Positions 20,435 through 43,207 of a DNA stretch of 64,000 nucleotides are shown here, one piece after another (positions within the stretch are counted from its first letter, which is position 1; every line of letters starts with the position of its first letter). The stretch spans positions 140,312 through 204,311 of the forward strand of contig CAVSCP010000006.1 of the NCBI GenBank assembly GCA_963726495.1, written 5' to 3'. The translations under genes were made by a program, and so were the position numbers. Source of the DNA: an uncultured Acidimicrobiales bacterium. GTDB lineage: Bacteria > Actinomycetota > Acidimicrobiia > Acidimicrobiales > DATKAS01. The notes under the pieces are model-generated. The model made no database searches. It had not been told where the DNA came from and saw nothing but the letters and a program-made list of their open reading frames with translations.

Positions 20435-21238
20435 TCAGGGACGCGGCAGCGTGAACGCGCGCACCTCGACCAGCGACGCGCCGACCGCAGCGACGGCGGC
20501 CTCGAACATCGCCTTGCCCCGCTCGGACGTCGCGCCCGTCGGGTCACCGATGTGGCCGCTCGGGCCGAAGTCGTTCGACAGCCATCCGAAGCTCACCTGG
20601 CCGCCGAACCTCACGTACCGGTTCTCCGCGAGGTCTTCGGGCACGTTGCGGAACCCCGCGTCCATGTCGACGAGCTCGGGTCGCAGGTGCAGCATCATCG
20701 AGGTCTCGCCGATGCCGCCGTGCACACCCATCCCCCGCTCGTCGGCCGGGTCGGTCTCGGACTTGCCTCCCTGGTCGGGCGGCACGAACGGATGCGCGAG
20801 GAACGTCATCAGCCCGTACTTCAGGCGGAGCTCGCGACAGGCGACGTTCAGCAACGACGAGTTGCCGCCGTGACCGTTCAGGAACACCACGCGCTTCGCC
20901 GGGAGCGTCGCCAACGATCGCCCGATGTCGTCGAGCACAGCGAGGAGCGTCGTCGCGGACAGCCAGACGGTGCCGGCCGACCAGGCGTGCTCGTTCGACT
21001 TCGTGTACGCGAGGGCCGGGAGCAGCCAGAGGTCGAGCTCGTCGCCCCGCTCCTGCACCACTGCCTCGGCAACTTCACCGGCGATCACGTAGTCCGTCGA
21101 GAACGGAAGGTGTGGTCCGTGCTGCTCGATCGCGCCGAGCGGCTGCACGAGGATCGAGTCGGGGCCGATGAGGTCGGCAACCTGCGGCGCGCGAAGGTCG
21201 GCCAGGTGTCGGGTCGCGTGTCGTGTGCGGGACGCCAT
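20435..21238 (-). CDS. Creatininase-family amidohydrolase
   Basis: Intact ORF 20435..21247, with likely start MASRTRH at 21238. Motifs: GAIEQHGPHLPFSTD, FLNGHGGN and HGGIGETS. Confidence 0.85.
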   Translation of the reverse strand: MASRTRHATRHLADLRAPQVADLIGPDSILVQPLGAIEQHGPHLPFSTDYVIAGEVAEAVVQERGDELDLWLLPALAYTKSNEHAWSAGTVWLSATTLLAVLDDIGRSLATLPAKRVVFLNGHGGNSSLLNVACRELRLKYGLMTFLAHPFVPPDQGGKSETDPADERGMGVHGGIGETSMMLHLRPELVDMDAGFRNVPEDLAENRYVRFGGQVSFGWLSNDFGPSGHIGDPTGATSERGKAMFEAAVAAVGASLVEVRAFTLPRP

Positions 21239-21242
21239 TTCA

Positions 21243-21258
21243 GGCATCGTACGATGCC
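21243..21258. promoter_or_regulatory. Perfect 16-bp palindrome GGCATCGTACGATGCC in the 22-bp gap between divergent genes (operator candidate)
   Basis: Read directly. It sits between the creatininase start (21238, minus) and the flavoenzyme start (21261, plus). Confidence 0.35.
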
Positions 21259-21260
21259 CG

Positions 21261-22809
21261 ATGGACTACGGCGCGATCGTCGTCGGGGCAGGGCACAACG
21301 GCCTCATCTGTGCCGCGTATCTCGCGAAGGCCGGCATCCCGACGTTGCTCGTCGAGGCCCGGTCCGACGTGGGTGGGTGCGCGTCGACGGTCGACGCGCT
21401 CGGCGCTCGCGTGAACATCTGCAACTGCGACCACGCCGTGTTCCGCACGACGCCGGTCATCGACGAGCTCGATCTCGGCGCGCCACGGGTTGCGCTACCT
21501 CGACGTCGAGCCCGCCCAGGTGCAGGCGTCGTGGGACGGCGACGCGGCGTGGCCCGCCTTTCACGACGTCGACCGCACGATCGACGCGCTCGAGCTGATC
21601 CACCCCGACGAAGCCGACGGCTACCGCCGCTACTGCGCGGCTGCGATCCCCGTCGCCGAGCTCGTGCTCGAGATGGCGTGCGAGCCGCCGAGTCGCCGGT
21701 GGCGTCCTCAAGCGCCTCGCCGCCCGACGAGCACGTGGCGCCGCGACGATGCTCCGTTGGAGTCGCCTCACCGCGGCCGACGTGCTGCGGTCGTTCTTCT
21801 CGCGCGAGGTCGTGATGGGCCCCGCGGTGACCACCGGTCCCGCGGTGTGGGGGCTCTCGCCGTTCACCCCTCACACGGGCCTCGGCGCGCTCACCTACGC
21901 GATGAAGCACGCCGGACGCGTCGGGCCGTCCCGTGGGTGGCAGCGGGGCGGTGCCGGCAAGCATCCTCGGCGCGTTCATCGGCGCGGGCGGCACGCTGCG
22001 CTCGGGCGCGCGAGTCACCGGCATCGTCTGTGAGGGCGACCACGTCCGCGGCGTCGAGCTCGCCGACGGCACCGTGATCGAGGCGCCCCTCGTGGTCTCG
22101 GCGTGCGATCCTCGCGAGACCTTCGTGCGCTGGCTGACCGGCGCTCCCTGCGTCGGCGTCAGGGGTGATCGAGCGTTGGCGCCACGCACCGGTCGAGGAC
22201 GGCTACGAGTCGAAGATCGACGCGATCGTCACCGGCATCCCCCGCTTCCGGTCGCTCGACCACGCCCAGTTCAGTCGGCTCGGCGTGGACGAGCCCGCGA
22301 TCGGCACGACGATCGTGGCGCCGGCCCTCGCAGACATGGCCACCGCGCACCGGCTGATCGACCAGGGCCTCATCGCGGACCGACCCATGTTCTTCGCCAA
22401 CATCCCCTCGGTGCTCGACGAGACGATGCGCGTCGGCGACTCGCATGTGCTCAGCCTCGAGACGCTCTACACGCCCGTACGCGCTGAAGGGCGGATGGGA
22501 GCAGTCGAGTGAGCCCGAGCGGTGGCTGCAGCGCTTCGCCACGCTGGTGGAAGGCACGTTCCTCGACACCGTCGAGCGCTGGCGGGCGATGACACCGCTC
22601 ATCTACGAGCGGGAGTTCAACCTTCCCGCGGCCACGCGACCGGGTTCGGCGGTTCGCCGCTGTCCGCGATGCTCGGCCGGCCGCGCGAGCTCACCCGCTA
22701 CGAGACCCCGGTGAAGGGCCTCTACCTCACCGGCGCGGCGACCTATCCGGGAGCGGGCGTGTGGGGCGCGAGCGGACGCAACGCGGCGACGGTGATCTTG
22801 CGCAGCTGA
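21261..22809 (+). pseudogene. Phytoene-desaturase-family NAD(P)/FAD-dependent oxidoreductase (CrtI-like), at least 7 frameshifts
   Basis: MDYGAIVVGAGHNGLICAAYLAKAGIPTLLVEARSDVGG (GxGxxG). It continues through ORFs 21490, 21749, 21933, 22165, 22445 and 22522, ending [25 protein letters not shown]. Confidence 0.7.
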
Positions 22810-22879
22810 CGATTTCTTCGGTGTTTCTCACTGCAGGGCGTATGGGGCACGTTGCGCCAAGAGATCCAGCCGGCCCGGC

Positions 22880-23350
22880 TCAGGCGATCGGCTCCTGGCT
22901 GCTCCAAGGGAACTCGATCCACTTGTCGGTCTCGCGCCAGACGTACTCGCACTTCACGACCGATCGCGGCTTCTCGTAGAGGACCGCGCAGCGCACCTCG
23001 CTGACCTTGCCGACGCAGAAGTCCTTCACGAGGGCCAGCGTGTGGCCGGTGTCAGCGACGTCGTCGGCGACGAGCACGCGTGCCTCGGTGAGGTCGACGA
23101 GCTCAGGGGTCGGCGGAAGGATCATCGGGACGTCGAGTCGCTCGTCGATGCCGGTGTAGTACTCGACGTTCATCGTGTACAGGTTCTTGACCGAGAGCGC
23201 GTAGCCGAGGGTCGCGGCCACCAGCAGGCCTCCACGGGCGATGGCGAGGATGATGTTGGGCTCGAACCCGTCCTTGTGGACCATCCGGGCGAGATCGCGC
23301 GACCCCTCACCGAAGTCGGGCCACGTGAGGATCTCCTTCTCCACACTCAT
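22880..23350 (-). CDS. Phosphoribosyltransferase (Gpt-like purine PRT)
   Basis: Intact 156-aa ORF. AIARGGLLVAATL, PRPP loop VLVADDVADTGHTLA and WIEFPW, in the same order as E. coli Gpt. The ATG overlaps the stop of the upstream Moco subunit (ATGA at 23347-23350). Confidence 0.8.
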   Translation of the reverse strand: MSVEKEILTWPDFGEGSRDLARMVHKDGFEPNIILAIARGGLLVAATLGYALSVKNLYTMNVEYYTGIDERLDVPMILPPTPELVDLTEARVLVADDVADTGHTLALVKDFCVGKVSEVRCAVLYEKPRSVVKCEYVWRETDKWIEFPWSSQEPIA

Positions 23351-25644
23351 TCAGCGAACCTACTCGCGAGCGCGATGTCCTGAGGGCGCACCGGCACCCG
23401 TGTGAGCGCCGCGCCGGTGGCATCTCTGATCGCGGCCACCACCGCGGGTGTCGCTGCGATGCACGGCGGCTCCCCCACGCCCTTCGCACCGAGCGGCGCC
23501 TGTGGATCGGGCTCCTCGACGAGCGACACCAGCACGTCGGGAGCGTCGAGGGCGGTCGGCAACAGGTAGTCGGTGAACGACGCGTTGCGGATGAGCCCGT
23601 CGGTCACGACGATCTCCTCCATCACGGCGAGGCCGAGGCCTTGCGCGATGCCTCCTTCGATCTGGCCGACAACCGAGAGCGGGTTGAGCGCACGGCCGAC
23701 GTCCTGCGCGGTCGCCATCTGGATGACCCGCACGAGGCCGAGCTCGACGTCGACGTCGACGACCGCGCGCTGGGCGACGAACGCGAACGCGACGTGGCAC
23801 GCACCCTGGCCGCGCTCGTCGAGCTCTTCGGTGGCGCGGTGCCGGTAGGTCACGGTCTCCTCGAAGTGCTGGCGGGCGGTCGCGTCGGCGACGGAGACCC
23901 GCGCGCCGTCCACAGTGTCGACGACGTCGGTGCCCTCGATCGCCAATCGCACCGGGTCGACCCCCATGCCTGCAGCGACATGCTCGAACAGCCGCTCGCG
24001 CACCGCCGCGGCACGCCATGTCGGTCGCGCCGCCGGACATCCACGTCTGGCGCGACGCAGAGGTCGAACCCGCCGACCCGATCGTGGTGTCCGCCGGCTC
24101 GAGCACGACTTCGTCCACGCCGAGGATCTCGCGTGCGATCTGCGCGGCGATCGTGACGAACCCCTGCCCGACCTCGGCCGTCGCGAGCTTGAGCGAGACG
24201 GCGCCGTCGGCGAGCCGGCAGCGCGCCGTTGCGGAGTCGTCGAACCCTTCGGAGTACATGAGGTTCTTGATCGCGAGCGCATAGCCGACGCCACGCTTCA
24301 CGTGGCCGGAGTCGGCGGTGCGGCCCGCGCCGCCGGGACGAGCGAGCCACGCGCCATCGTCGGCCTCCGGGGGGAGCGGCAACGCGGCGGTCTCGCGCAG
24401 GCAGCGCACCGTGGGCGCCACGCTCTCGAGCCGTTGGCCGGTGACGAGCAGGTCGCCGGTCTCGATCGCGTTGCGCAACCGGATCTCGACGGGATCGAGC
24501 CCGCACGCCAGCCGCGAGCTTGTCGATCTGGCTCTCGTGCGCGAAGCAGGCCTGCTGCACACCGAACCCACGCATCGCTCCGCACGGCGGGTTGTTCGTG
24601 CGCACCGCCCATCCGTCGATGCGGGCGTTCGCCAGCCGGTACGGGCCCTGCACATGCGTGATCGCGTTGATGAGCACCGCGCTGGACGTCGATGCGTAGG
24701 CGCCCCCGTCGAGCACCACTCGGCACTCGAGGTTCACGAGGGTGCCGTCGGCGCGCGCGTGGTGCCGCATCCAGATCGTGCCGGGGTGCCGATGCACGTG
24801 GCCGAGGAACGACTCGTCACGGCCGTAGACCATCTTCACCGGACGGCCCAGACCTCAGCGCGAGCAGGCACACGTGCACTTGCAGGCTCACGTCCTCGCG
24901 CGCCCCGAACGCGCCGCCCACACCGGCGAGCTGAAGGCGCACTCGTTCCTCGGGCAGACCGAGGCACTCCGCGATCTGACGGCGATCCTCGTGCAGCCAC
25001 TGCGTCGAGATGAACAGCTCGACGCCGTGCCCGTCGCTGTCGGGCAGCGCGAGCGCGGACTCGAGGCCGAGGAAGGCCTGGTCCTGCATGCCGATCTCGT
25101 AGGTGCCCTCGACCACGACGTCACCGGCGACGCCTTCTGCACCGCACTCGATGCGCTGGTGGCGGAAGACGTTGCCGTCGGGATGGATCGGGGCCGCCTC
25201 GATGGCTCGCTCGGGATCGGTGAGCGGCTCGAGCACCTCGTACTCGACGATGATCGCCTCGCACGCGCGCCGGGCTGTCTCAGGATGATCAGCAGCAACC
25301 GCGGCGATCGCCTGACCCGCATAGAGCACGGTGTCGGACGCGAACACGGGCTGGTCCGCGCTGATGAGGCCGTAGGTCGCGCCGGGCACGTCCTCCGCGG
25401 TGACGATCACCTCGACGCCGGGGATGCGCCACGCAGGGCTCACGTCGAGCCGGCGGATGCGGGCATGGGGATGCGGCGACCGCAGCGTCTTCCCCCACAC
25501 CATCCCTTCGGCCCAGAGGTCGGAGGAGAACGCGAAGCGTCCCTGCACCTTCGGTGTCGCGTCGGGACGCGTCGGGCTCGCGCCGAGCACGGCGCGATCG
25601 CCGACGACCCGAGTCCCAAGGTCGGTCGTCTCGGTGTCGGTCAC
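23347..25644 (-). pseudogene. Xanthine-dehydrogenase-family molybdopterin-binding large subunit (CoxL/XdhB-like), about 3 frameshifts
   Basis: ORF 24817..25713 from GTG 25644 (VTDTETTDLG..PKVQGRFAFSSD..MQDQAFLGLES..GGAFGARED). ORF 23850..24839 (GGAYASTS..RTNNPPCGAMRGFG). ORF 23360..24655 (GLDPVEIRLRN..GQGF). ORF 23347..24294 (GQIEGGIAQGLG..GAKGVGEPP). The start overlaps the FeS subunit stop (GTGA). Confidence 0.85.
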
Positions 25645-26118
25645 GAGCCGTTCCGCTCTCGGGCCGCGGCTTGCACCGCCGCGAAGATGCGTCCGTAGCC
25701 CGTGCAGCGGCACAGGTTGCCCGACAGCGCCTCACGGATCGCGAGCGGATCGGGGTCGGGCACCCGGTCGAGGAGGTCGTGCACCGCGACGATGAGACCC
25801 GGCGTGCAGAAGCCACACTGCACCGCGCCCTCGGCGACGAACGCGCGCTGCACGTCGCTCAGCGAGCCGTCGCACGTGAGGCCCTCGACGGTCGTGATCT
25901 CGCGATCGACGACCGACGCCGCGAGCACGAGGCACGAGCACGTCAGCGTGCCGTCGACGACGACGGAGCACGAGCCGCACTCCCCCTGCTCGCAGGCGCC
26001 CTTCGCTCCGGGCAGGCCGAGCCGCTCGCGCAAGACGTAGAGGAGGCTCTCCCCCGCCCACGCGTCGTGGACGTCATGCATGCTCACCGTTGATGGTGAG
26101 CCGGTAGTGCTCGCTCAC
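25641..26118 (-). pseudogene. (2Fe-2S)-binding small subunit (CoxS/XdhC-type FeS), frameshift near 26085
   Basis: ORF 25641..26087 has CEQGECGSCSV and QCGFCTPG...CRCTGY. The true N-terminus VSEHYRLTINGEH is encoded at GTG 26118 in the frame of ORF 26074..27030. Confidence 0.85.
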
Positions 26119-26934
26119 GCGGCCGCCACCCTGCGCAGCGCGCGTGCTGCCATGACTTCGACCGCCCGCCGCCGGTATGCCGCGGTCGACCGGTGGTCGT
26201 CGATCGGCCTGACCTCGGCCGCGACTCGTAGACCGAACTCGTCGGGGTCGGCGCTCACGCCGCCGTTGGCCTCGGCCCACTGCTCCGCATCGCGTGCTCG
26301 GATGATCGTGGGGCCGACCGAGCCCGCCGCGACTCTCAGCGCCGCCGCGATCGACGACGAGCGCGAGGTTCGCGATCGCGATCACCATCGCGTTGCGCAC
26401 GCCGACCTTCATGAACTCTTGCGGCCCCTTCGGCAGCGCCACCACCACCTCGGTGACGAGCTCGCCGGGTTGCAGCGCGGTGCGCTTCGGCCCGACCAGG
26501 AAGTCGTGGATCGACAGGACACGCGAGCCGTTGAGCGACCGCATCACGATCGCGGCGTCGAGGGCCGAGAGGACGGGCAGCAGGTCGCCCGCGGGCGACC
26601 CCGTGCCGAGGTTCCCTCCGATCGTCGCCGCGTTGCGGATCTGGGGCGAGCCGACGGTGCGCGCGGCCTGCGCCAGGGCCGGCAGCGACTCGGCCAGCGG
26701 CGGCTGCATCAGCTGCGAGCACGTGACACCGGCGCCCAGCCGCACGGTCTCGCCCTCGATGTCCCACCGACGCAGCTCGTCGACCCGGGCCAGTGCGACG
26801 ACGTCCTCGGGCCGTCGATGGCCGAAGTTCACCTCGACCATGAAGTCGGTGCCACCCGCGAGCACGTGCGCGCCGGGATGCTCGGCGAGCGCCGCGAGGG
26901 CGTCGTCCAGCGTCGTCGGGCTCAGCACGGCCAT
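26115..26934 (-). pseudogene. FAD-binding molybdopterin-dehydrogenase medium subunit (CoxM-like), frameshift near 26340
   Basis: MAVLSPTTLDDALAALAEHPGAHVLAGGTDFMVE...ATIGGNLGTGSPAGD (ORF 26074..27030 from ATG 26934). My re-translation after ALVVD gives AAALRVAAGSVGPTIIRARDAEQW...IDDHRSTAAYRRRAVEVMAARALRRVAAA, with TGA overlapping the FeS GTG. Confidence 0.8.
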
Positions 26935-26959
26935 CGGGGGATTCTTGTCGGTCCCAGCC

Positions 26960-27019
26960 GACCGTTTGCTCACTGGGGGTTCGTGGGCCTGCGGTTTCCT
27001 CCGCAGTGAGCAAACGGTC
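26960..27019. promoter_or_regulatory. Perfect 16-bp inverted repeat with 28-nt spacer in a divergent promoter region
   Basis: GACCGTTTGCTCACTG (26960..26975) and CAGTGAGCAAACGGTC (27004..27019), read directly. They are flanked by a direct repeat TCCCAGCCG (26952..26960 and 27031..27039). The region lies between the coxM-like start (26934, minus) and the amidase start (27048, plus). Confidence 0.4.
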
Positions 27020-27047
27020 CTGCGCGACACTCCCAGCCGTGATCCGG

Positions 27048-28232
27048 ATGCCGGCCGACGATCCGCTCGGCGCGCTGAAGATCGGACCCGCCGTGCTCGC
27101 CGAGGGCGCGGCTGACGGCGCCCTGGCCGGCACGACGTTCGTCGCGAAGGACCTCTACGACGTCGCGGGCTACCCGACCGGAGCGGGCAACCCTCAGTGG
27201 GAAGCGACCCACCCGGTGCCGACGACCACCTCCTCTGCCGTCACCCGCCTGCTCGCGCGGGCGCGACGCTCATCGGCAAGAGCCACACCGACGAGCTCGC
27301 CTACAGCCTCTCGGGCACGAACGTGCACTACGGCACGCCGGTCAACAGCGCCGCGCCGGGGTGCGTCCCAGGAGGTTCGTCATCGGGATCGGCGTCGGCA
27401 GTGGCGGGCGGGCTGTGCGACTTCGCGCTCGGATCGGACACCGGCGGCTCTGTGCGCGTGCCGGCGAGCTTCTGCGGGATCTTCGGGCTGCGGCCGACCC
27501 ACGGCCGCGTCGCTGCGGATGGCGTCGTGCCGCTCGCGCCGTCATTCGACGCGGTGGGCTGGTTCGCCAACAGCGGCGCTGTCCTGATGCAGGTCGGACG
27601 CGTGCTCCTCGACGCGGACTTCGACGAGACCGCGCACCTGGCGGCGACCAAGCTGGTGCTCGCTGACGACCTGCTCGCGGCGGTGCCCGATGAGGTCGCC
27701 GCGGTGGTCGAGGCGGCAGCGCGAGAAGCGGCCACTCGTCTCGACCTGCAGCTCGAGCGTGGTTCCGTCGCGGACGGCGACATCGCCTCGTGGGCCGACT
27801 GCTTCCGCACGCTCCAACGCGGCGAGGCATGGGCATGCCATGGCGACTGGATCACCGCCACGCGACCGTCGTTCGGCCCGGGCATCGCGCAGCGCTTCGC
27901 CGACGCATCGCACGTCACCCCTGAGGAGGTCGCGGCCGCTCAACGGCGGCGTGTCGAGATCCGAGACCGGGTCGCTCGGAGCACCGCGGGCGGCGTCGTG
28001 TTCGCTCTGCCACCCGCACAGGGTCCGGCCTATCGCGTCGACCTCGAAGGCCCAGCGAAGGAGGCCGTGCGGGCGGGCGCGTTGGCACTCACGTGCGCTG
28101 CCGGCCTCGCGGGCACGCCGCAGGTGACCGTTCACGGCGGCACGGTCGACGCGAAGCCGGTCGGGCTCGGCCTGCTCGGGGGCCCACGGGATGGACGAAG
28201 CGCTCCTCGCGATGGCCGCCGCGCTCGACTAG
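27048..28232 (+). pseudogene. Amidase (amidase-signature family), 2 frameshifts (about 27260 and 28185)
   Basis: ORF 27006..27587 from ATG 27048 (MPADDPL..FVAKDLYDVAGYPTGAGNP). ORF 27197..28651 (GKSHTDELAYSLSGTNVHYGTP..PGGSSSGSASAVA..ALGSDTGGSVRVPASFCG). My re-translation of the end gives HGMDEALLAMAAALD-TAG (28230..28232). Confidence 0.8.
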
Positions 28233-29608
28233 GGGATCTGGAACCTCGCCGCGACGCGGCGGTGCCACGTGAGCATCTCGTCGACTCGATCGTCGGCGAG
28301 GGCCCCGTCGCGCACGACCACCCGACCGGCGACGACCGTGTGCTTCGCCGCGCTCGGCCCGCACCGCAACCACGCCTCGACCGGATCGCTGATCGCGCCG
28401 GCATGCGCGATGTCGCCGGCGACCGGCCACACCACGAGATCGCCGACTGCGCCGACCGTGAGCTCACCGATCTCACCGGCGCGGCCGAGGCACCCGGCGC
28501 TGCCGCGAGTCGCGATCTCCAGCGCGTCACGCGCGCCCGTCGACGCCGGACCTCCGCGCAGCCTCCCGAGGAGCATCGCGTTGCGCGCCTCCATCCAGAG
28601 CGAAGCCGAGTCGGTGGACGACGACCCGTCGCATCCGAGACCGACGGGTGAGCCAGCCGCGCGCATCGCGGCAACGGGAGCGATCCCGCCCCCGCCGATC
28701 ATCATGTTCGAGCTCGGGCAGTGCGCGACGCCCACGCCCGCCCGGCCGAGCCCCGCGACCTCGGCCTCGTTCGGGTAGATGCAGTGCGCGACCCAGCTGC
28801 GATCGGTCATCCACCCGACCGACTCGAAGTGGTCGATCGTGCGCCCGCCGAACTTCTCCGCCGCGAACCTGTCTTCGTCGGGGTCCTCGGCAAGGTGAGT
28901 GTGCAAACGCACGTCGAGCCGCTCGGCCAGCTCTGCGGTCCGCACCATCAGCTCGGAGGTCACGCTGAACGGCGAGCACGGCGCGAGCGCGATCCGCACC
29001 ATCGCACCCCGCGCTCGGTCGTGGTGCAACGCGACCAAGCGCTCGGAGTCGGCGAGGATCTCGTCGTCGTCCTGCACGACCGAGTCGGGCGGGAGCCCAC
29101 CGTCCTTCTCCGACAGGCTCATCGACCCCCGCGTCGGATGGAAGCGCATGCCGAGCTCGGTCGCGGCTCGGATCTCGGCGCTGATCAGGTCGCCACCGCC
29201 CCGCGGATGCACGTAGAGGTGATCGGTGGACGTCGTGCACCCCCCGAGAGCGAGCTCGGCGAGCCCGATCCATGCGGACACGTACGCGGCTTCCTCGTCG
29301 AGCCGGCTCCAGAGCGGATAGAGCGCCGTCAGCCAGTCGAAGAGCGATGCGACCGTCGCGGGCCGATAGGCGCGCGTGAGGTTCTGGTAGATGTGGTGAT
29401 GGGTGTTGATCAGCCCCGGCGTCACCAAGCACCCGCTCGCGTCGAGCACGACCTCGGCCGTCGGCATCGCGTCAGCCGAACCTCCGACAGCGCTCACGAA
29501 GCCGTCGGTGACCGCGACCCATCCACCCGCGATCTCACGGCGCTCGGCGTCCATCGTCGCGACGAGATCCGCGCCTCGCACGAGCAGATCGACAGGTGCG
29601 TCGGCCAC
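28229..29608 (-). CDS. Amidohydrolase of the 8-oxoguanine deaminase / AtzB-like group
   Basis: Intact 459-aa ORF. Motifs: TPGLINTHHHIYQNLTRA, RLHTHLAE, VAHCPSSN and GLGCDGSSSTD. Confidence 0.8.
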   Translation of the reverse strand: MADAPVDLLVRGADLVATMDAERREIAGGWVAVTDGFVSAVGGSADAMPTAEVVLDASGCLVTPGLINTHHHIYQNLTRAYRPATVASLFDWLTALYPLWSRLDEEAAYVSAWIGLAELALGGCTTSTDHLYVHPRGGGDLISAEIRAATELGMRFHPTRGSMSLSEKDGGLPPDSVVQDDDEILADSERLVALHHDRARGAMVRIALAPCSPFSVTSELMVRTAELAERLDVRLHTHLAEDPDEDRFAAEKFGGRTIDHFESVGWMTDRSWVAHCIYPNEAEVAGLGRAGVGVAHCPSSNMMIGGGGIAPVAAMRAAGSPVGLGCDGSSSTDSASLWMEARNAMLLGRLRGGPASTGARDALEIATRGSAGCLGRAGEIGELTVGAVGDLVVWPVAGDIAHAGAISDPVEAWLRCGPSAAKHTVVAGRVVVRDGALADDRVDEMLTWHRRVAARFQIP

Positions 29609-29611
29609 GCG

Positions 29612-30025
29612 TCAGACCCGCATGCCGGCGACGGCCTCGACCTCGATCTCCACCTTCCATGCGGGGTCGAGCAGCGCCTTGACCACGAGCGTCGTGTTCG
29701 CCGGGCGGGTGTCCGCGAACAGCTCGCCGTGCACCGCGCCGATCTCGTCGAAGTCCTGCGCCTCGACGAGGAAGATGCGCGTGCGAACGACGTCGGCGAG
29801 CGTGGCGCCCGCTTCGCGGAGGGCGGCCTCGATGATCTCGAAGCACCGCCGCGCCTGCACGGTCGGGCTGGGGTCGACATGCCCGTCCGGCCACTGTGGC
29901 GCGGTGCCGGCAACGAAGATGCGGTCGCCCACCCGCACCGCTCTGCTGTATCCGACGATCAGCTCGTACGGCCCGCCCGACGAGACGAGCTGCCGGTGTT
30001 CGCTCACGCGTCCTCCCTGTTGCAC
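29612..30025 (-). CDS. RidA (YjgF/Rid) family protein
   Basis: Intact ORF with YSRAVRVGDRIFVAGT and VVRTRIFL...VEIEVEA. The start may be GTG (VSEHRQL) 18 nt downstream of 30025. Confidence 0.85.
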   Translation of the reverse strand: MQQGGRVSEHRQLVSSGGPYELIVGYSRAVRVGDRIFVAGTAPQWPDGHVDPSPTVQARRCFEIIEAALREAGATLADVVRTRIFLVEAQDFDEIGAVHGELFADTRPANTTLVVKALLDPAWKVEIEVEAVAGMRV

Positions 30026-30047
30026 GGGCGCTCACGCGCCCTCCTGT

Positions 30048-31060
30048 TCACACGGCCCAATCTGCAAACGCGTCGATCATGAGCCGGACATCATCGCCCA
30101 GCGGGTACAGGATCGGGCACGTACTTCCGGCGGCGACGTACTCGGCGACCTTCGCGCGGCACTCGTCGGGCGTGCCCGAGGCGGTGATCATCTGCACGAT
30201 GTCGTCGGGCACGAGCTTCGACGCGGCGACGACCTGCTCGTGGGTCGCCGGCCACGTGAGCACCTTGCCGATCTCGTCGAGCAGCGACTCGGGCACGCCA
30301 CGACGCCTTCATGATGTGGGGCTGCTGGCCGAGGTACTGGGTGACGAGGAGGCGCGAGCGCATCGAGCGCGCGGCCGCGATCTTCGTCGAGCGAGCACAC
30401 GACGAGCTGCGGCCGGTCGATCGTCGTCGAGCGTCGCGTCCCGCCTTGGCCGCGCCCCTCGCGAGATGCTCGAGCGCGGTCGCGTTGTACGCGGGAGACA
30501 CGAGGTAGTTGAGGACCACGCCGTCGGCGATCTCGCCCGTGAGCTCCATCATCTGCATGCCCGTGGCGCCGATGTAGATGGGGACGTCCTTCGGCTCGCG
30601 CTCCTGATGCACGTAGTCGAGCTCGACGCCGTCGAGGTGCACGAACTCGCCGTCGAACGTGACGGTCTCGTTCGGCGAGCAGCGCCGCGGACGGCCTCGA
30701 CGATCTCGCGCATGGCCTTGAGCGGCCTCGCCCGGTCGACGCCGACCTTCCGCGGCGAGCGGGTCCCACCACGCGCCGATCCCGAGGATCACGCGACCCG
30801 GGGCGAGGTCGTCGAGGGTGGAGAACGTCGACGCGAGCAGCGCGGGGTTGCGGGTCCACATCGCGACCACGCCGCTGACCGACCTTGATGCGCTCGGTGA
30901 CCGCAGCGAACGCGGCCATCGGCACCGTCGCCTCGCGCACCAGCCGGCTCTCGGCCTGCCACACCGCCTCGAACCCGCGCTCCTCGGCGTACCGCACGTA
31001 GTCCATCGCCTCGCGGAGCGGGTGGGCGTCCTGGAGGTACAGCGCGACGGGTGCGGCCAT
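30048..31060 (-). pseudogene. LLM-class oxidoreductase, 3 or more frameshifts
   Basis: [61 protein letters not shown] (ORF 30188..31192 from ATG 31060). ORF 30091..30870 ([36 protein letters not shown]...[29 protein letters not shown]). ORF 30048..30296 gives the C-terminus. Confidence 0.75.
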
Positions 31061-31067
31061 CAGTCGG

Positions 31068-32099
31068 TCATAGCAGCCGGTGGAGGCGCCTGGCTTGCTC
31101 GGCGGCCTGCGCGCGCACCTCGATCGGGTCGACCCGGGTCGCGACGCCGTCGCGCAGCACGACCTCACCGTCGATCTCGACGTCGACGGCACGGACGTCG
31201 GTGGTGAAGGCGAGCGACCACGGATCCATCGCGTCGTACGACCACCGCACGACGTCGCCGCGGGCCTCCGGCACCAGCTGCCATCCGTTCTCGAGCCACG
31301 ACCACGCCGCCTCGGGTGAGGCCTCGACGTCGTCCTCGCGATGACGTACGAAGGCGAGGCGGAACTCGTCGAGCATGTCTGCCCCGATGCCGTCGGTGCC
31401 GAGCACGATCGGGTTCGATCGCGACGCGGGCCTCGCGTAGCCGACGGCGTTGTTCATGTTCGAGCGCGGGTTGTGCGCGATCGTGCCCGGCAGGTCTTGT
31501 TCGAGGTGCACGGCGTGGACGAGCAGCCACGACTCGTCTGCGAGCGCGGCGAGCCGCTTCCCCGCGTCCGAGTCGACCGTCCCCTCGGCGACGTGGATGT
31601 GGACGCCGACGCCGAGGTCGCGCGCGAGGCCGGCGGCCGCCTCGAGCGTCTCGTCGCTGCACGTGAACGCGGCGTGGACACCGACGAGCCCTCGTCCCCC
31701 GCCGCGGAGGAACCGCTCGTTCTCGGCCAGCCCGCGCCGAGCACCCGTCGGCGCCGTGGCGGTCGGTCACGCCGTAGGCGCACACGACCCGCACGCCGAC
31801 CTCGGCGGCACGCGTCGGCGATCACGTCGAGCGAGCCCTCGATCGCGTGAGGGCGACTCGTGATGGTCGACGATCGCAGTCGTTCCGCACTCGAGCGCCT
31901 CGAGCGCGCCGAGCATCGCCGACCACCTCAGCATCTCGAGGTCGAGCGCGACGTCGAGCCTCCACCAGACCTGCTCGAGGATCTCGACGAACGTCGTCGG
32001 TGTGCGCGGTGGCGAAGGCATGCCGCGAGCGAGCGCCGAGTACAGGTGATGGTGCGCGCAGACGAGCCCGGGCGTCGTCGCGCTCACGCGGCGAGTCAC
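31068..32099 (-). pseudogene. ssnA: SsnA-like putative aminohydrolase, about 3 frameshifts, short N-terminus
   Basis: TPGLVCAHHHLYSALARGMP..FVEILEQVWWRLDVALD..GALEALECGTTAIVDHHESP (ORF 31767..32156). VRVVCAYGVTDRHG (ORF 31165..31794). [32 protein letters not shown] (ORF 31068..31511). These parallel E. coli SsnA PGIVCSHNHFYSGLSRGI / LWWRLDRALD / VIDHHASP / HNARSNMNNHVGY / LGTDGIGSDMFEEMKFAF as I recall it. GTG 32099 overlaps the upstream stop (GTGA). Confidence 0.75.
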
Positions 32100-34702
32100 T
32101 CGTCGGTGTCGGAGCCCGACGACGCGCCGCGGCGCATCGGCAGCGTGGAGCGCCATGCGCCGTCGAGGTCGTGCAAGGCGGCAGCCACCGCGCCCGCCGT
32201 GGGCACCAGGCCGATCTCACCGACACCCTTGATGCCGTACGGCGCGTTCGGCTGCGGAGACTCGACGAGGATCACCTCGACGCGCGGCATGTCCTTCGGG
32301 CGGATGATGCCGAGGCTCTTCAGCGTCATGTTCGTCGGCCGGCCCTCGGCGTCGGCCGGGAAGTCCTCGGTGAGCGCGTAGCCGAGACCCATGTGCACCG
32401 AGCCTTCGATCTGGCCCTCGCACAGCAGAGGGTTGACGGCGCGGCCCACGTCGTGCGCAGCGACGACCTTGTCGACGTTGCCACTCTCGCGATCGACGAC
32501 GACGAGCTGCGACGCGTAGCCGAACGTCGAGTGGATCACCGGGTGCTCGAGGCCCTCGGCGAGCGAGTTCGTCCAGTCGACGCGGTACTCGCCCTCGTAG
32601 TCGACGCCCGGCTTGCAGCCAGCGGCGCGCGCGGCCTCGCACGCCGCCTTCACCGAGCCCGCACCCATCAACGTGCCTCGGCTGCCGGTCGTCTGGCCCG
32701 CGCCGAGCTCGCGGGACGTGTCGACGAGCACGCGGATGCGCGTCGGGGTCGACCTGCAGCTCCTCGACCGCGACCTGACGGGCCACGGTGTGCACGCCCT
32801 GCCCCATCTCCGTCCAGCAGTGCCGGACCTCGATGGTGCCGTCCTCCTCGAACCGCACGACCGCGCGCGCGATCTCCTTGAAGCCGTTGCCGAGGCCCGA
32901 GTTCTTGAGCCCGAGGCCGAGCCCGACGGCGGCTCCCGAGGCGACTGCGTCGTCGTAGGCCGGCTTGATCGCGTCGAGGCACGCACGCGCGCCGAGGCAG
33001 CCGTCGTCCATGATCTGACCGGGTCCCCACACCGAGCCCGGGGTCACGACGTTGCGCGCACGGATCTCCCAGCCTGAGATCCCGACCGCGTCGGCGAGGC
33101 GATCGAGCACGCCCTCCATCGCGAACTGCGCCTGGTTCGCGCCGAAGCCGCGGAACGCGCCACACACCGGGTTGTTCGTGCGGGCCGCGATCGAGTCGAC
33201 GTCGATCGCCGGCACCACGTACGGACCACTGGCGTGCCCTGCCGACCGCTCGAGCACCTTCATCCCGACCGAGGCGTACGGGCCGGAGTCGCCGACCATG
33301 CGCGCCCGCAGCGCGGTGAGCCGTCCGTCGTCGTCGCAACCGGCCCAGTACTCCATCCGGATCGGGTGCCGCTTCGGGTGGATCAGCAACGACTCCTCAC
33401 GCGAGAGCGTGCACTTCACGGGCCGCCCGGTCAGCCACGACGCCAGCGCGGTCTGGGCCTGGTTGGACATGTCCTCCTTGCCGCCGAACGCGCCGCCGTT
33501 CGCGACGAGCTCGACCGTCACGCGTCCCGCGTCGATGCCGAGCACCGACGCGATCTGGTCGCGGTCGTCCCAGACCCCCTGGCCTCCCGACCACACGTGC
33601 AGCCCATCGGACCCGTCGGGCAGGACCACCGGCGCGACGAGGGTCGACTCGGGCTCGAGGAACGCGTGCTCGATGCGCTGGGTCTGGAACACCTCGTGCA
33701 CGACGTGCGCGCTCGCCGCCAGCGCGGCATCGACGTCGCCGCGCGCATACGTCGACCGCGACAGCACGTTGCCTTCGAGACCCCACACCGCGTCGTCCGC
33801 GCCGGACGCGATGGCCTGCGCGCGGATCGACGATCGGCGGCAGCGGCCGATAGTCGACTTGGACGAGCTGTGCGGCGGCGCGGGCGGTCTCGCGGTCCTC
33901 CGCGACGACCATCGCGAGGACGTCACCCAGATAGGAGGTGCGCCCGCCTTCGGGGATGAAGATCGGCCAGTCCTTGTGGATCAACCCGACGCGGAGCGCG
34001 CCAGGTATGTCGGCGGCGGTGAGGACGCGCACGACACCCGGCACCGCGGCCGCGGCCGTCACGTCGATGCCGACGACGTCGGCGCGGGCGTGCGCCGCGA
34101 GATGAAACGCGCCGTGGAGCATGCCGGGAAGGACGAGGTCGTCGACATACGGCTTGTCGCCGAGCGAGAGCTCGAGGCCCTCGTAGCGAAGTCCGCTCGT
34201 GCCGACACCGCCGCACGCGGGTGGTTCGACGTCGCCACCCGTGCGCGAGCAGCTCGATCGCATCGAGGATCTTCACGTAGCCCGTGCACCGGCAGAGGTG
34301 CGCGCCGAGGTGGCGCGCCGCGTCTTGACGCGTCAGGTCGGCGCCCTTCTTCGCGATCAGCGCCTTCGTGCGCATCACGATGCCGGGCGTGCAGAACCCA
34401 CACTGCAGGGCGCCGGTCGACGCGAAGACCCTCGCGTAGCGATCGCGCTCCTCGGTGGGCATGCCTTCGAGGGTCGTGATCCCCCGACCGGCGGTCTTGG
34501 CGAGCGACGTCTGGCAGCTCACCTGCGCCTTGCCGTCGAGCAGCACCGTGCAACACCCGCACTGCCCCGACGGCGAGCACCCGTCCTTCGGCGAGAGGAC
34601 GCCGAGCTCCTCGCGCAGCGCGGCGAGCAGGTGGGGATGGTCGCCACGGCACGACACCGAGATGCCGTTGAGCACGAAGGAGACAGGTTCGGCGCCGATC
34701 AC
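32096..34702 (-). pseudogene. Molybdopterin-dependent hydroxylase with fused N-terminal [2Fe-2S] domains and no FAD domain (XdhD/Mop-type), about 3 frameshifts
   Basis: ORF 33923..34702 (CSPSGQCGCCTV, QCGFCTPG, CRCTGY). ORF 33397..34263 (GTSGLRYEGLELSLGDKPYVDD..ADIPG). ORF 32217..33926 (IEHAFLEPES..GGAFGGKED..NNPVCGAFRGFG..EMGQGV). ORF 32096..32986 (GQIEGSVHMGLG..GIKGVGE). The FeS and Moco parts join in one polypeptide near 34250. Confidence 0.8.
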
Positions 34703-34718
34703 CCCAGTCTAGGAAGTG

Positions 34719-36429: not shown

Positions 36430-36521
36430 AAGGGCGCCGCAGTGCGGCGCCGGGTGCGCGAAGCACCGATTGTCGAGCGAAGCGAGCGGGAGCCGCCCGA
36501 AGCGAAGCGGAGGCCGGCTAC
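36430..36521 (+). repeat. 92-nt structured intergenic repeat, copy A
   Basis: Aligns without gaps to 48062..48153 (10 mismatches in 92 by my hand count). It has hairpin GGCGCCGC-agt-GCGGCGCC (36433..36451), hairpin GGTGC-gcgaa-GCACC, and several GCGAAGC motifs. It fills the whole spacer between the adk stop (36427) and the ppk2 stop (36518), and its last bases supply the ppk2 TAG. Confidence 0.7.
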
Positions 36522-37321
36522 CGGACAACGATCTTCTCGATCCCCGGCTCGGGCTCGGGCAGCTTCGGGTCCATGCGTTCGAGGGCGTGCACGACGAGCT
36601 CTGACACCGCGACCGTCCGCACCCACTTCCGGTCGCCGGGGACGACGTGCCACGGCGCCCACTTCGTCGACGTCTCCGTCAGCGTCTCCTCGTACGCGTG
36701 GTTGTACTGATCCCACATCGCCCGGTCGTCGAGGTCGGCCTTCCGGAACTTCCAGCTCTTCTCGGGATCGTCGATGCGCCGCTGAAGCCGTCGACGCTGC
36801 TCGTCCGCCGAGATGTGGAGGAAGACCTTCACGATCGTCGTGCCCTCGTCGCACAACATCCGCTCGAACTCGCGGATGTGACGGAGACGCGGCCGCCACA
36901 CCGACTCGGGCGCGAGCGCTCGCACCCGGACCGCGATCACGTCCTCGTAGTGAGATCGGTTGAAGATGCCCATCTCGCCGTGCGCGGGGCAGACCTCGTG
37001 CACGCGCCACAGGAAGTCGTGCGCGGCGTCGCGACCGACGGGCGCCTTGAACGAGGTCACCCGGCAACCCTGCGGGTTCACACCTGACAGCACGGTGCGG
37101 ATCGTGCCGTCCTTGCCCGAGGCGTCCATCCCCTGCAGCACGAGGAGCAAGCTGCGGCGCTGCTCGGCCCACAGCCGGTTCTGCAAAGTCTGCAGCCGAG
37201 CCAGCAAGTCGCGGTGCAGCTCCGCCGCCTCGGGCTTGCCGGCGAGGCCGAGACGGTCGGCCGGATCGCGGCTCGACAGAGCAGCCGGAGCACCGGGCGC
37301 GACACGTGTCGACTCGAACAT
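36518..37321 (-). CDS. ppk2: Polyphosphate kinase 2 family protein (single PPK2 domain)
   Basis: Intact 267-aa ORF with LQGMDASGKDGTI (Walker A-like), FNRSHYEDV and WAPWHVVPGDRKW. Confidence 0.85.
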   Translation of the reverse strand: MFESTRVAPGAPAALSSRDPADRLGLAGKPEAAELHRDLLARLQTLQNRLWAEQRRSLLLVLQGMDASGKDGTIRTVLSGVNPQGCRVTSFKAPVGRDAAHDFLWRVHEVCPAHGEMGIFNRSHYEDVIAVRVRALAPESVWRPRLRHIREFERMLCDEGTTIVKVFLHISADEQRRRLQRRIDDPEKSWKFRKADLDDRAMWDQYNHAYEETLTETSTKWAPWHVVPGDRKWVRTVAVSELVVHALERMDPKLPEPEPGIEKIVVR

Positions 37322-37426
37322 GTGAATGACGTTACGACCGGTCGCGCCGCCACTGAATGCTCATCGACGGCAGGTACGGTCCGACCGACTGGTGCGACGG
37401 GGGTCGCGCCGCAACAGGGGGCAACG

Positions 37427-39184
37427 ATGAGATTGAGGCATGTTCGTCCGCGGCATCGCGCCGCGCTCGCACTCGGCGCCTCGCTGCTCGCGTTCGGGTT
37501 GCTCGCCGCCGCGTGCGGAAGCGACGACAGCGGGAGCAGCGCGGGCACCACAGCCGCCGGAGGCGGCGGCGCCAGCACGACAGCCGGAGGTGGAGCCGCA
37601 ACGACGCAGCGGCAGCGGCCGAGACGCCGACGCCGGGCGGCAAGCTCGTGTTCGGCCTCGAGGCCGACACCGGCAGCCCGTGGGAGCCGTCGAAGGCGCT
37701 GCTCGCGATCTCGGGTCACACCGTCATCGCGGTCGGTGTTCGATCCGCTCGCGCTCGCGACGGTCGACGGCAAGGTCGAGCCGTACCTCGCCGAGTCGAT
37801 CACGCCGAACGCGGACTACACGGTATGGACGATCAAGGCCCGCTCGGGCGTCACGTTCCACGACGGCACGCCGTTCGACGGCGCTGCGATCGTCGACAAC
37901 CTCACTCGCCAGTTCAAGTCGTTCCTGACCGGGAAGGTGTTCTCGGACGTGGCGACCAATGCTGACGGCTCACCGCAGATCGTGGTCGACCCCGCGGACC
38001 CGATGTCGGCGCAGATCACGATGAAGCGCTCGTGGGTGCCGTTCCCGATCTACCTCACGGGCCAGATCGGCTACATGGCGAGCCCGACGTGGATGAAGCC
38101 GCGGCCGACAAGGACCCGGCGCTCGAGTCCAAGCCGGTCGGCACGGGTCCGTTCGTCTTCAAGGACTACAAGCCGGGTGAGTCGTTCGACGCGACGAAGA
38201 ACCCGAACTACTGGAACAAGCCGTACCCGTACCTCGACGAGGTCGAGTTCCGCGTGATCCCCGACGGCAAGACGCGCGCCTCGGCGCTCGAGGCCGGCGA
38301 CGTGAACATGATCCACACGGACGACGGCGAGAACATCGCCAAGTTCCGCAGTGAGGCCGACCAGTTCCCGATGACCGAGGTGTCGGCGTTCGGGGAGACG
38401 GGCTACACGCTGCTGAAGGTCGACGACCCCGGCGAGCCCGCTGTCCGACGCGCGCGTGCGCTGCGCGATGGCGTACGCGACCGACGAGCAGGCGCTCATC
38501 GACAAGCTCGGTGCCGGCATCAACAAGGTCGCGAGCGGTCCGTTCTCACCGACCCAGGTCGGCTACTTGCCCGACACGGGCTACCCGCTGAAGCAGGACA
38601 TGGCCAAGGCGCAAGAGCTCGTCAAGTCGTACAAGGCCGACCACCCGGGCCCGCTGAACATCAACCTGTCGACGACGCAGGACGCGACCGCACTCGTCAT
38701 CGCTCAGGCCCAGCAGGAGTTCTTCAAGCAGGCCGGCTTCGACAACGTGCAGATCAGCCAGATCGAGCAGGCGAAGTACATCCTCACGGCGCTGCAAGGT
38801 GACTTCCAGGCCTTCCAGTGGCGCAACCACGGCGGTCTCGACCTCGACGCCCAGTACATCTGGTGGTCGTCCGAGAACGCGCTCCCGGTGGGTCAGCTCG
38901 CGCTGAACTTCGGGCGCATCAAGGACCCGGTGATCGACAAGGCGCTCTCCGACAACCGCGGGGCTACCGACCCGGCGGTGAAGAAGCAGCTCGCCGAGAC
39001 GGTCAACAAGGAGTTCGCGACCCAGTGCTACAACATCTGGGGCGACTGGGACCTCTGGGGTCTGCCGCACACGCCCGACGTCCACGGCATCGAGGACTTC
39101 ACCCTCCCGTCGGGTGACAAGGCGTGCCTCTGCAACGGCATCGCCGGCGTCTTCAACATCCAGTCGGTCTGGATCAAGCAGTAG
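37427..39184 (+). pseudogene. ABC peptide/nickel-type (family 5) substrate-binding lipoprotein, paralog 1, about 4 frameshifts
   Basis: MRLRHVRPRHRAALALGASLLAFGLLAAACGSDDSGSS (lipobox) in ORF 37214..38257. GGKLVFGLEADTGSPWEPSK (ORF 37357). KPVGTGPFVFKDYKPGES..NPNYWNKPYPYLDEVEFRVIPD (ORF 38032). C-terminus in ORF 38456..39184, ending SVWIKQ. Confidence 0.8.
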
Positions 39185-39217
39185 CCCACCCCGCGTAACC
39201 AGCGAGAACACGCGCTT

Positions 39218-39246
39218 CGGCGGGCGTCCCATGGGGGCGTCCGCCG
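39218..39246 (+). terminator. Terminator-like hairpin after SBP paralog 1
   Basis: CGGCGGGCGTCCC-atg-GGGGCGTCCGCCG forms a 13-bp stem if two G-U pairs are allowed. It lies 34 nt after the stop. There is no clear U-tract. Confidence 0.4.
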
Positions 39247-39267
39247 TTCGCGCGCACACGCCACGCG

Positions 39268-39296
39268 TTGACACCGCGCCAATGCCGCAATAGGTT
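39268..39296 (+). promoter_or_regulatory. Sigma-70-type promoter for SBP paralog 2
   Basis: TTGACA (39268..39273), 17-nt spacer, TAGGTT (39291..39296), read directly. The same boxes recur upstream of paralog 3. Confidence 0.5.
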
Positions 39297-39434
39297 CCGC
39301 GCCATCGTGCGTGTGGCGGGGGTCACATTCCACGGGTCCGCGACAGGGGGTGAGCTGGCAGAGGGAACCAGCCGCACGGACGGATAGCAGCAATGGACTG
39401 CGGGCGAGGGGCCCGCGTGAGTGGGGGAGTCTGC

Positions 39435-41182: not shown

Positions 41183-41200
41183 CGCGACGCCGCGACCGCA

Positions 41201-41230
41201 CGACGGGCGCCCCGAGCGGGGCGCCCGTCG
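41201..41230 (+). terminator. Terminator-like hairpin after SBP paralog 2
   Basis: CGACGGGCGCCCC-gagc-GGGGCGCCCGTCG, a perfect 13-bp stem. There is no clear U-tract. Confidence 0.45.
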
Positions 41231-41254
41231 TCGCGCGTCTGTAACGGGGCTGCA

Positions 41255-41284
41255 TTGACACCGTGGCAACTGCAGTCGTAGGTT
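41255..41284 (+). promoter_or_regulatory. Sigma-70-type promoter for SBP paralog 3
   Basis: TTGACA (41255..41260), 18-nt spacer, TAGGTT (41279..41284). Confidence 0.5.
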
Positions 41285-41396
41285 CCGGTCGACCATGCAT
41301 GTGGCGGGGGTCACATCCTGCAGAGGGCGTCCAAAGGGGTGGGCGCAGCACGCCTGAGGGCTCTCGCCCAAGCGTCCACACAACAGAGGGGGAAGT

Positions 41397-43144: not shown

Positions 43145-43151
43145 CGCATGA

Positions 43152-43177
43152 CACGACACGTCTTTCGACGTGCCGTG
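43152..43177 (+). promoter_or_regulatory. Intercistronic hairpin between SBP paralog 3 and the permease genes (attenuator/processing-site candidate)
   Basis: CACGaCACGTC-tttc-GACGTGcCGTG, 10 paired positions with one mismatch. It is followed by the RBS GGGAGGGAGAGG and ATG 43208. Confidence 0.4.
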
Positions 43178-43207
43178 AGGGAACCTTAGGGAGGGAGAGG
43201 TGACGGC

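Follow-up and report, generated by a model that had tools for sequence, protein, structure and literature searches.

Results

Gene organization of the operon

This analysis concerns a four-gene locus on a 64,000-nucleotide stretch of DNA (the window) from an uncultured Acidimicrobiales bacterium (GenBank assembly GCA_963726495.1, contig CAVSCP010000006.1, positions 140,312 to 204,311). The window has a G+C content of ~70%. On the minus strand of window positions 22880-26934, genes for the flavin adenine dinucleotide (FAD), [2Fe-2S] (FeS) and molybdenum-cofactor (Moco) subunits of a hydroxylase are followed by a gene for a phosphoribosyltransferase (PRT). The first gene (26115..26934) encodes the FAD-binding medium subunit, of 272 aa after removal of one inserted base. 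The [2Fe-2S] small subunit (25641..26118) has 158 aa, also after removal of one inserted base, and the PucD-type Moco large subunit (23347..25644) has 764 aa after removal of three inserted bases from what are four frame segments as sequenced. The last gene (22880..23350) is an open reading frame (ORF) of 156 aa that encodes a 6-oxopurine-type PRT.

Each gene overlaps the next by four bases, as read directly from the sequence. The stop codon of the FAD gene and the start codon of the FeS gene share GTGA at 26118-26115, the FeS stop and the large-subunit start share GTGA at 25644-25641, and the large-subunit stop and the PRT start share ATGA at 23350-23347. The original prediction described an overlap at all four junctions; the overlaps are real and lie at these positions, but four genes have three junctions, and only three had been listed. 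Two relatives (L003 and L004) have identical overlaps with identical spacing. Four-base start/stop overlaps are commonplace in high-GC operons and are unremarkable alone. The locus is flanked upstream by a divergent amidase gene and downstream by a convergent CrtI-like gene. By strand, junctions, flanking genes and conservation, the four genes form a single predicted operon and are presumably co-transcribed.

Frame breaks in the hydroxylase genes

The original prediction overlooked that the three hydroxylase genes are frame-broken in the window; the ORF list and translations show only the PRT gene to be open. Read from their starts, translation of the FeS gene ends at codon 15 and that of the large-subunit gene at codon 276, with three in-frame stops overall. 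The frame of the FAD gene slips near 26344 and overruns the true stop to 26074. The four frame segments of the large subunit correspond to positions 8-251, 255-392, 364-539 and 536-757 of the pucD profile.

A search for homologues of the PRT led to a 545-kb metagenome contig in ENA (L001), which encodes a 99% identical PRT protein and is 98% identical to window positions 12870-33503. Compared with L001, the operon contains exactly five extra single bases, near 26344 in the FAD gene, near 26081 in the FeS gene and near 24846, 24509 and 24007 in the large-subunit gene. These five bases explain every break, and their deletion yields the full-length FAD, FeS and Moco subunits. The insertions are part of a wider pattern. 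Over the 20.6-kb alignment to L001, the window has ~32 inserted and ~10 deleted single bases, or ~1 indel per 490 bases, located in nearly every gene and mostly outside homopolymers. A frame plot of G+C at third codon positions revealed comparable frame-hopping over the full 64 kb. Codon differences between the window and L001 are mainly synonymous, with synonymous:non-synonymous counts of 33:2 in the large subunit, 19:8 in the FAD subunit and 2:1 in the PRT. L003 and L004, which share the same style of assembler name and come from long-read assemblies of the same kind, are broken at other positions.

Because the indels are spread over all genes, the substitutions are mostly synonymous and L001 lacks the five extra bases, the breaks are most likely assembly indel errors and not gene decay. 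The hydroxylase genes are therefore probably functional in the organism, and the operon genes appear from this comparison to be under purifying selection. Programmed frameshifting and selective decay of the hydroxylase were rejected, since the same single-base indels occur in all genes over 20 kb. The intactness of the PRT gene is uninformative, because a gene of 471 bases would escape the indel rate of the window by chance ~38% of the time.

The same type of error affects a gene call in L001, a 922-aa "FeS-Moco fusion" that is due to one extra C near window position 25649. Apart from L001, every relative encodes the FeS and Moco subunits in two genes read in different frames, and L003 and L004 match the overlap spacing of the window; a genuine fusion was rejected on these grounds. 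Since the window is indel-noisy, apparent pseudogenes anywhere in it are suspect. As a practical caution, apparent pseudogenes and fusions in this indel-prone assembly and in the relatives should not be trusted at face value.

Identity of the hydroxylase

Pfam searches with the window fragments identified FAD_binding_5 (168.7 bits), Fer2, Fer2_2, Ald_Xan_dh_C, MoCoBD_1 and MoCoBD_2. CO_deh_flav_C was found only in the intact L001 orthologue of the FAD subunit (281 aa, FAD_binding_5 plus CO_deh_flav_C). These domains assign the predicted hydroxylase to the xanthine-oxidase/CoxMSL superfamily, with the three-subunit architecture. The description of the enzyme as CoxM-CoxS-CoxL-type thus stands for superfamily and architecture, but not in the sense of a CO dehydrogenase: CoxL was ruled out by scores of 225 bits on TIGR02416 CO_dehy_Mo_lg (cutoff 991) and 254 bits on NF040766 (cutoff 950). 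The corrected large subunit also fell far below the cutoffs for 4-hydroxybenzoyl-CoA reductase, for aldehyde oxidoreductases and for the XdhD-type model TIGR03313 (209 bits).

The model that the corrected large subunit does satisfy is NCBIfam TIGR03196 pucD, xanthine dehydrogenase subunit D, with 862.6 bits against a cutoff of 783.65. The L001 and L061 orthologues scored 861.3 and 823.4 bits, respectively, and each uncorrected window fragment was below the cutoff. The other two subunits resemble xanthine dehydrogenase partners in profile searches, with no equivalog cutoff reached; for example, the corrected FAD subunit scored 172 bits on XdhB_XDHase, which has a cutoff of 310. Equivalents of bovine xanthine oxidase Gln767, Glu802, Arg912, Phe914 and the catalytic Glu1261 are present in the large subunit and are conserved in orthologues. 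The position of bovine Phe1009 is occupied by Tyr. The pucD score and the purine and uric-acid catabolic genes nearby give good support to the predicted nucleobase-like substrate.

The phosphoribosyltransferase

The PRT matched Pfam PF00156 with 62.8 bits. When aligned to E. coli Gpt (28% identity), it retains the motifs D96-D97-x-x-D100-T-G (DDxxDTG), K127-P (KP) and W144-I145-E-x-P-W (WIE-PW), which from structures of E. coli xanthine-guanine PRT (XGPRT) we take to be the functional residues for binding of phosphoribosyl pyrophosphate (PRPP) and for base stacking. D96, D97, D100, K127 and W144 are invariant in 81 PRT orthologues, and position 145 is Ile in 80 of the 81. Among solved structures, the P. 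horikoshii purine PRT (1VDM, E 3.6e-22) and the S. solfataricus enzymes GpT-2 (4Z1O) and GpT-1 come nearest, with E. coli XGPRT more distant. The Sulfolobus and Pyrococcus enzymes are termed 6-oxopurine PRTs (PMC7326950). The PRT missed the NCBIfam equivalogs NF006613 for xanthine PRT (59.7 bits, cutoff 138) and TIGR01203 for Hpt (22.5 bits, cutoff 150). The structure matches and motifs bear out the claim that a Gpt-like purine PRT is the last gene, and more precisely place the predicted enzyme among Gpt-like type I 6-oxopurine PRTs, in a distinct subfamily nearest to the archaeal hypoxanthine-guanine-xanthine PRTs (HGXPRTs).

The PRT family is very large (7961 matches at E<=1e-10) and tightly conserved, with 62-76% identity in metagenome-assembled genomes (MAGs) of other Actinomycetota lineages. 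No characterised member turned up in literature searches, which targeted other subjects. When PRTs linked to a hydroxylase were compared with unlinked PRTs from Nocardia, Amycolatopsis, Streptomyces and Gaiellales, only positions 84 and 151 differed, both outside the nine catalytic and base-binding residues checked. Because linked and unlinked PRTs share active-site residues, it seems likely that they serve one ordinary function everywhere. There is likewise no sign of an unusual base, since the active site of the operon PRT is indistinguishable from that of stand-alone Actinomycetota orthologues. Clustering of the genes around unlinked PRTs revealed no universal partner, and its output was noisy from spurious ORFs in high-GC DNA.

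Conservation of the hydroxylase-PRT pairing

Conservation was examined from both sides of the pairing. The PRT-side scan covered 80 loci, with one genome per species, and hydroxylase genes were located by tblastn with the L001 proteins; the best match, at 93%, was from an uncultured Acidimicrobiales MAG. The pairing is present in 20 of these 80 loci. In 19 of them the FAD, FeS and Moco genes lie directly upstream of the PRT gene on the same strand, and in L061 the PRT gene comes first. The spacing between the Moco and PRT genes in the 19 loci is a four-base overlap in two, a gap of 10-103 bases in 13 and a gap of 0.6-2.4 kb in four. Where a title gives a class or family, the paired locus belongs to the Acidimicrobiia (among them Ilumatobacteraceae and Acidimicrobiaceae); the label of five others reads just Actinomycetes or Actinomycetota, or something else. 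Five loci from Thermoleophilia and Gaiellales have the hydroxylase 5-8 kb from the PRT. No hydroxylase was detected by tblastn within 8 kb of the PRT in Nocardia, Amycolatopsis, Pseudonocardia, Actinomadura or Streptomyces.

The hydroxylase-side scan searched metagenomes with the large-subunit alignment as query and gave 75 evaluable loci at 57-73% identity. A PRT gene accompanies the hydroxylase in 24 of the 75, directly downstream in 17 (with gaps of 1-156 bases in 16) and within 4 kb upstream in seven. The arrangement thus recurs in other genomes in both scans and is not a peculiarity of this one, which is what would have refuted the original prediction.

Polyphosphate kinase and the upstream catabolic cluster

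The window also encodes a polyphosphate kinase 2 (PPK2; 36521..37360, minus strand; Pfam PF03976, 239 bits), with an adenylate kinase gene nearby at ~35.9-36.4 kb. In relatives, tblastn placed PPK2 immediately before the FAD gene in seven loci (L007, L025, L029, L047, L064, L065 and L078) and immediately before the PRT gene in three loci that lack the hydroxylase (L034, L074 and L082). This distribution suggests an older PPK2-PRT pair, putatively for nucleotide salvage, into which the hydroxylase genes fit.

Upstream of the operon, L001 gene calls and window ORFs define a candidate purine and uric-acid catabolic cluster on the minus strand (28229..34708), with most of its genes frame-broken in the window. 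It begins with a second Mo hydroxylase, an XdhAC-like FeS and Moco fusion (32099-34708) without a FAD subunit of its own. The intact L061 orthologue of this protein scored 778 bits on TIGR03311, "selenium-dependent xanthine dehydrogenase" (cutoff 830), and retains the equivalent of Arg880. The fusion is followed by genes for an SsnA-like aminohydrolase (~31050-32090; 215-232 bits in the L001 and L061 orthologues, family cutoff 444), an F420-type luciferase-like oxidoreductase (~30030-31040) and RidA (29612-30031), and for an amidohydrolase of the "8-oxoguanine deaminase" type (28229-29608; 580.6 bits, cutoff 532). The cluster is also found at L001 1-5196, at L061 11987-16465 and in L103-L117. 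The order XdhAC-like, SsnA-like, F420 oxidoreductase, FAD, FeS and PucD-like is conserved on one strand in many metagenome loci.

The cluster resembles the reductive uric-acid (2,8-dioxopurine) pathway described in PMC12507026 and bioRxiv 10.1101/2025.04.24.650524, apparently in an actinobacterial F420 version. Section 9 of PMC12507026 places SsnA in Actinomycetota and reports that a luciferase-family F420 enzyme replaces YgfK in Chloroflexota. The same source reports SsnA clusters that include XdhA/XdhD homologues and a YgfM-type FAD subunit. No homologues of YgfK, HyuA, YgeW or YgeX were identified.

The divergent amidase gene (27094-28231, plus strand) lies between the amidohydrolase and FAD genes in the opposite orientation, and its L001 orthologue passes NF006169 (PRK08310). 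L003 and L004 lack this gene, which the window and L001 share, and in them the upstream cluster runs directly into the FAD gene. The intergenic region between the amidase and FAD genes contains a 71-base segment (26952..27022) that is absent from L001. This segment has a perfect 16-bp inverted repeat (GACCGTTTGCTCACTG; 26960-26975 and 27004-27019) around a 28-base loop, and has a predicted folding energy of -50.9 kcal/mol (z -2.76). Both the palindrome and the segment are single copy in the window and had no match in the 86 loci compared, and the palindrome was dropped as a candidate mobile element or conserved operator because it is repeated neither in the window nor in other loci.

On the other side of the operon, the CrtI-like FAD oxidoreductase gene (~21266-22822, plus strand) converges with the PRT gene and lies next to a creatininase-family gene (20435-21247, minus strand). 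Both are found near the PRT again and again in loci from Acidimicrobiia, including loci without a hydroxylase. Elsewhere in the window, positions 38000-46000 have a lower G+C content (64-67%) and a strong positive AT skew, and include a gene for a family-5 solute-binding protein (SBP_bac_5) and other plus-strand genes.

Discussion

The gene content of the operon is consistent with a three-subunit Mo hydroxylase of the PucD clade that is encoded together with a Gpt-like 6-oxopurine PRT, and it is probable that the two enzymes act at the branch point of hypoxanthine and xanthine metabolism. Free hypoxanthine and xanthine would arrive at a choice between oxidation and salvage. The dehydrogenase would convert hypoxanthine to xanthine and xanthine to urate. 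The co-expressed PRT would use PRPP to convert hypoxanthine, xanthine or guanine to the monophosphates IMP, XMP or GMP, and in relatives the upstream PPK2 could phosphorylate these products. Urate would, in this genome, be handed on to the adjacent cluster of XdhAC-like, SsnA-like and F420-reductase proteins for ring cleavage. The substrates, the co-transcription and any link in flux between hydroxylase and PRT are inferred.

Several observations weigh against this assignment. The position equivalent to bovine Arg880 is Asn in the large subunit and is invariant in 16 orthologues, and Arg880 is important for xanthine turnover in classical enzymes. The classical active-site triad is an unreliable test in these bacterial enzymes, however, because E. 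coli XdhA and XdhD also deviate, with Gln/Ala and Gln/Asn, respectively, aligned to the 802/880 positions. The corrected FeS subunit scored 160 bits on XdhC_XDHase and 148.7 bits on pucE (cutoff 254.3), both below cutoff, and the FAD subunit had no match to pucC (cutoff 306.05) at E<=1e-30, with the L001 orthologue reaching 82.9 bits. The hydroxylase has no nearby PRT in 51 of the 75 loci, and most PRT orthologues outside the Acidimicrobiia have no nearby hydroxylase. The linkage is therefore lineage-specific and may reflect gene order kept by descent, with no functional coupling. No signal that would delimit the transcript was found either: there was no Rfam match to a riboswitch or other RNA element across the 64-kb window, and a scan for promoters and terminators gave no consensus signal. 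Lastly, the frame breaks invite the reading that this strain carries the hydroxylase genes as true pseudogenes and that only the PRT still works in a decaying operon. Five frame-breaking insertions within 3.6 kb of hydroxylase genes beside an intact PRT gene would fit this, but an indel every ~490 bases in nearly every gene over 20 kb would be unbearable for a working genome. Given in addition the 33:2 synonymous excess relative to L001, the intact L001 genes, the odds of chance escape of the PRT gene and the breakage of sister long-read assemblies elsewhere, decay is the least probable of the explanations considered here.

The remaining alternatives accept functional genes and differ in what the pairing means. 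The PucD-like enzyme may act on another oxopurine, for example in interconversion of urate and 2,8-dioxopurine like E. coli XdhD-YgfM, and belong with the SsnA cluster, with the PRT merely a neighbor. Asn at the Arg880 position, as in the aligned E. coli XdhD, is compatible with this, as are the very frequent placement of the FAD, FeS and PucD-like genes directly after the XdhAC-like, SsnA and F420 oxidoreductase genes and the reported clustering of SsnA with XdhA/XdhD homologues and a YgfM-type FAD subunit (PMC12507026). Such a role seems unlikely, though, for an enzyme that passes the pucD cutoff and reaches only 209 bits on TIGR03313. In SsnA-linked loci with a long enough flank, the XdhAC-like enzyme beside SsnA is the better candidate for urate reduction, and except for L004 and L061 the Acidimicrobiia loci with the unit have no SsnA homologue in the flanks examined and instead have PPK2 upstream in ten. 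It is also conceivable that the adjacency is gene order inherited within the Acidimicrobiia and functionally meaningless. The pairing is confined to one class, two-thirds of hydroxylase loci lack the PRT, and the three loci in which the PRT directly follows PPK2 without a hydroxylase (L034, L074 and L082) look as if a cassette had been gained into or lost from a PPK2-PRT pair. Yet the arrangement persists, tightly spaced and on one strand, at only 57-73% protein identity, and the two enzymes share a small set of bases as substrates, which makes meaningless adjacency quite unlikely. In its strong form, the original prediction would mean a dedicated module, one whose hydroxylase yields a base outside the standard set (such as urate, 8-oxoguanine or a hydroxylated pyridine) for salvage by this PRT alone. 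The conserved start/stop overlap and short spacers, the atypical hydroxylase active site with Asn for Arg880 and the failure of the PRT to reach the Xpt and Hpt equivalog cutoffs can all be cited for such a module. Nevertheless, the PRT shows little or no variation at its catalytic and base-binding residues, with only positions 84 and 151 separating linked from unlinked enzymes, and the ordinary route from hypoxanthine via xanthine to XMP already accounts for the pairing (PMC6627660). A dedicated module for a non-standard base is thus very unlikely.

A variant of the branch-point assignment would give PPK2 a direct part. It can be speculated, with little confidence, that PPK2, the PucD-like hydroxylase and the PRT form an "oxidative purine salvage" module in Acidimicrobiia, in which the Asn-for-Arg880 enzyme stops at xanthine, or makes another oxopurine, mainly to feed the PRT, and polyphosphate drives the nucleotide to the di- or triphosphate. 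If true, guanine nucleotides would be reached by a route that does not depend on GuaB and is hard-wired as an operon.

Salvage by oxidation had been put forward as an arrangement not recognised among described operon types, but the idea has already been described for E. coli and Streptomyces in PMC6627660, with reference to Xi et al. 2000 and Sivapragasam & Grove 2016. According to that source, it is established in E. coli that xanthine dehydrogenase supports salvage via xanthine, XMP and GMP and can also divert purines to urate, and a like salvage role under the control of XdhR and ppGpp (guanosine tetraphosphate) has been proposed in S. coelicolor. Known gene families, a known pathway logic and a known type of neighboring cluster are involved, and only the operon-level wiring in Acidimicrobiia may be new; no description of a PucD-type hydroxylase joined in an operon to a Gpt-like PRT, often with PPK2, was found in literature searches. 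If the coupling is functional, a class that is largely uncultured and has been little studied would offer genomic evidence that a xanthine dehydrogenase and a 6-oxopurine PRT, often with PPK2, divide scavenged purines between salvage to nucleotides and degradation that yields nitrogen. The analysis also draws attention to a very large and highly conserved family of Gpt-like PRTs in Actinomycetota.

Each part of the locus resembles a known system. The PRT resembles the P. horikoshii enzyme 1VDM, S. solfataricus HGXPRT 4Z1O and E. coli XGPRT 1A95 in length (~150-180 aa) and in having the signature of the type I PRT fold, the PRPP motif DDxxDTG, the KP lysine and the base-stacking motif WIE-PW. 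It differs from E. coli Gpt in having only 28% identity and in falling below the Xpt and Hpt cutoffs. The bifunctional hypoxanthine-guanine PRT (HGPRT)/adenylate kinase of Zobellia galactanivorans (PMC7326950) similarly couples a 6-oxopurine PRT to the next phosphorylation, and PPK2 and adenylate kinase genes lie near the operon here. In Zobellia the coupling is a protein fusion, whereas here it is limited to gene neighborhood, and the kinase is the polyphosphate-dependent PPK2. The XdhAC-like, SsnA-like and F420 oxidoreductase neighbors match the Chloroflexota variant of the reductive uric-acid ("yanthine") cluster. That likeness concerns neighboring genes and not the four operon genes; moreover, the SsnA-like protein is below the family cutoff and the organism is presumably aerobic.

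PucCDE of B. subtilis is the nearest model for the hydroxylase, with separate FAD, 2Fe-2S and Moco subunits, a pucD cutoff that the large subunit exceeds and a purine-catabolic neighborhood. Unlike the B. subtilis enzyme, the operon has FeS and FAD subunits below the pucE and pucC cutoffs and Asn in place of the classical Arg880 in its large subunit, and it includes no maturation genes of the PucA/PucB type. The B. subtilis puc operon is not known to contain a PRT gene. The closest parallels in logic are E. coli XdhABC and S. coelicolor XdhR-xdhABC, in which xanthine dehydrogenase and a 6-oxopurine PRT would likewise carry hypoxanthine through xanthine and XMP to GMP. The operon differs from that of S. 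coelicolor in that no XdhR-type regulator is adjacent to it. In both of those organisms the PRT gene lies outside the xdh operon, as with E. coli gpt, which is located between pepD and frsA, far from xdhABC, whereas in the operon described here hydroxylase and PRT genes are joined by overlapping codons.

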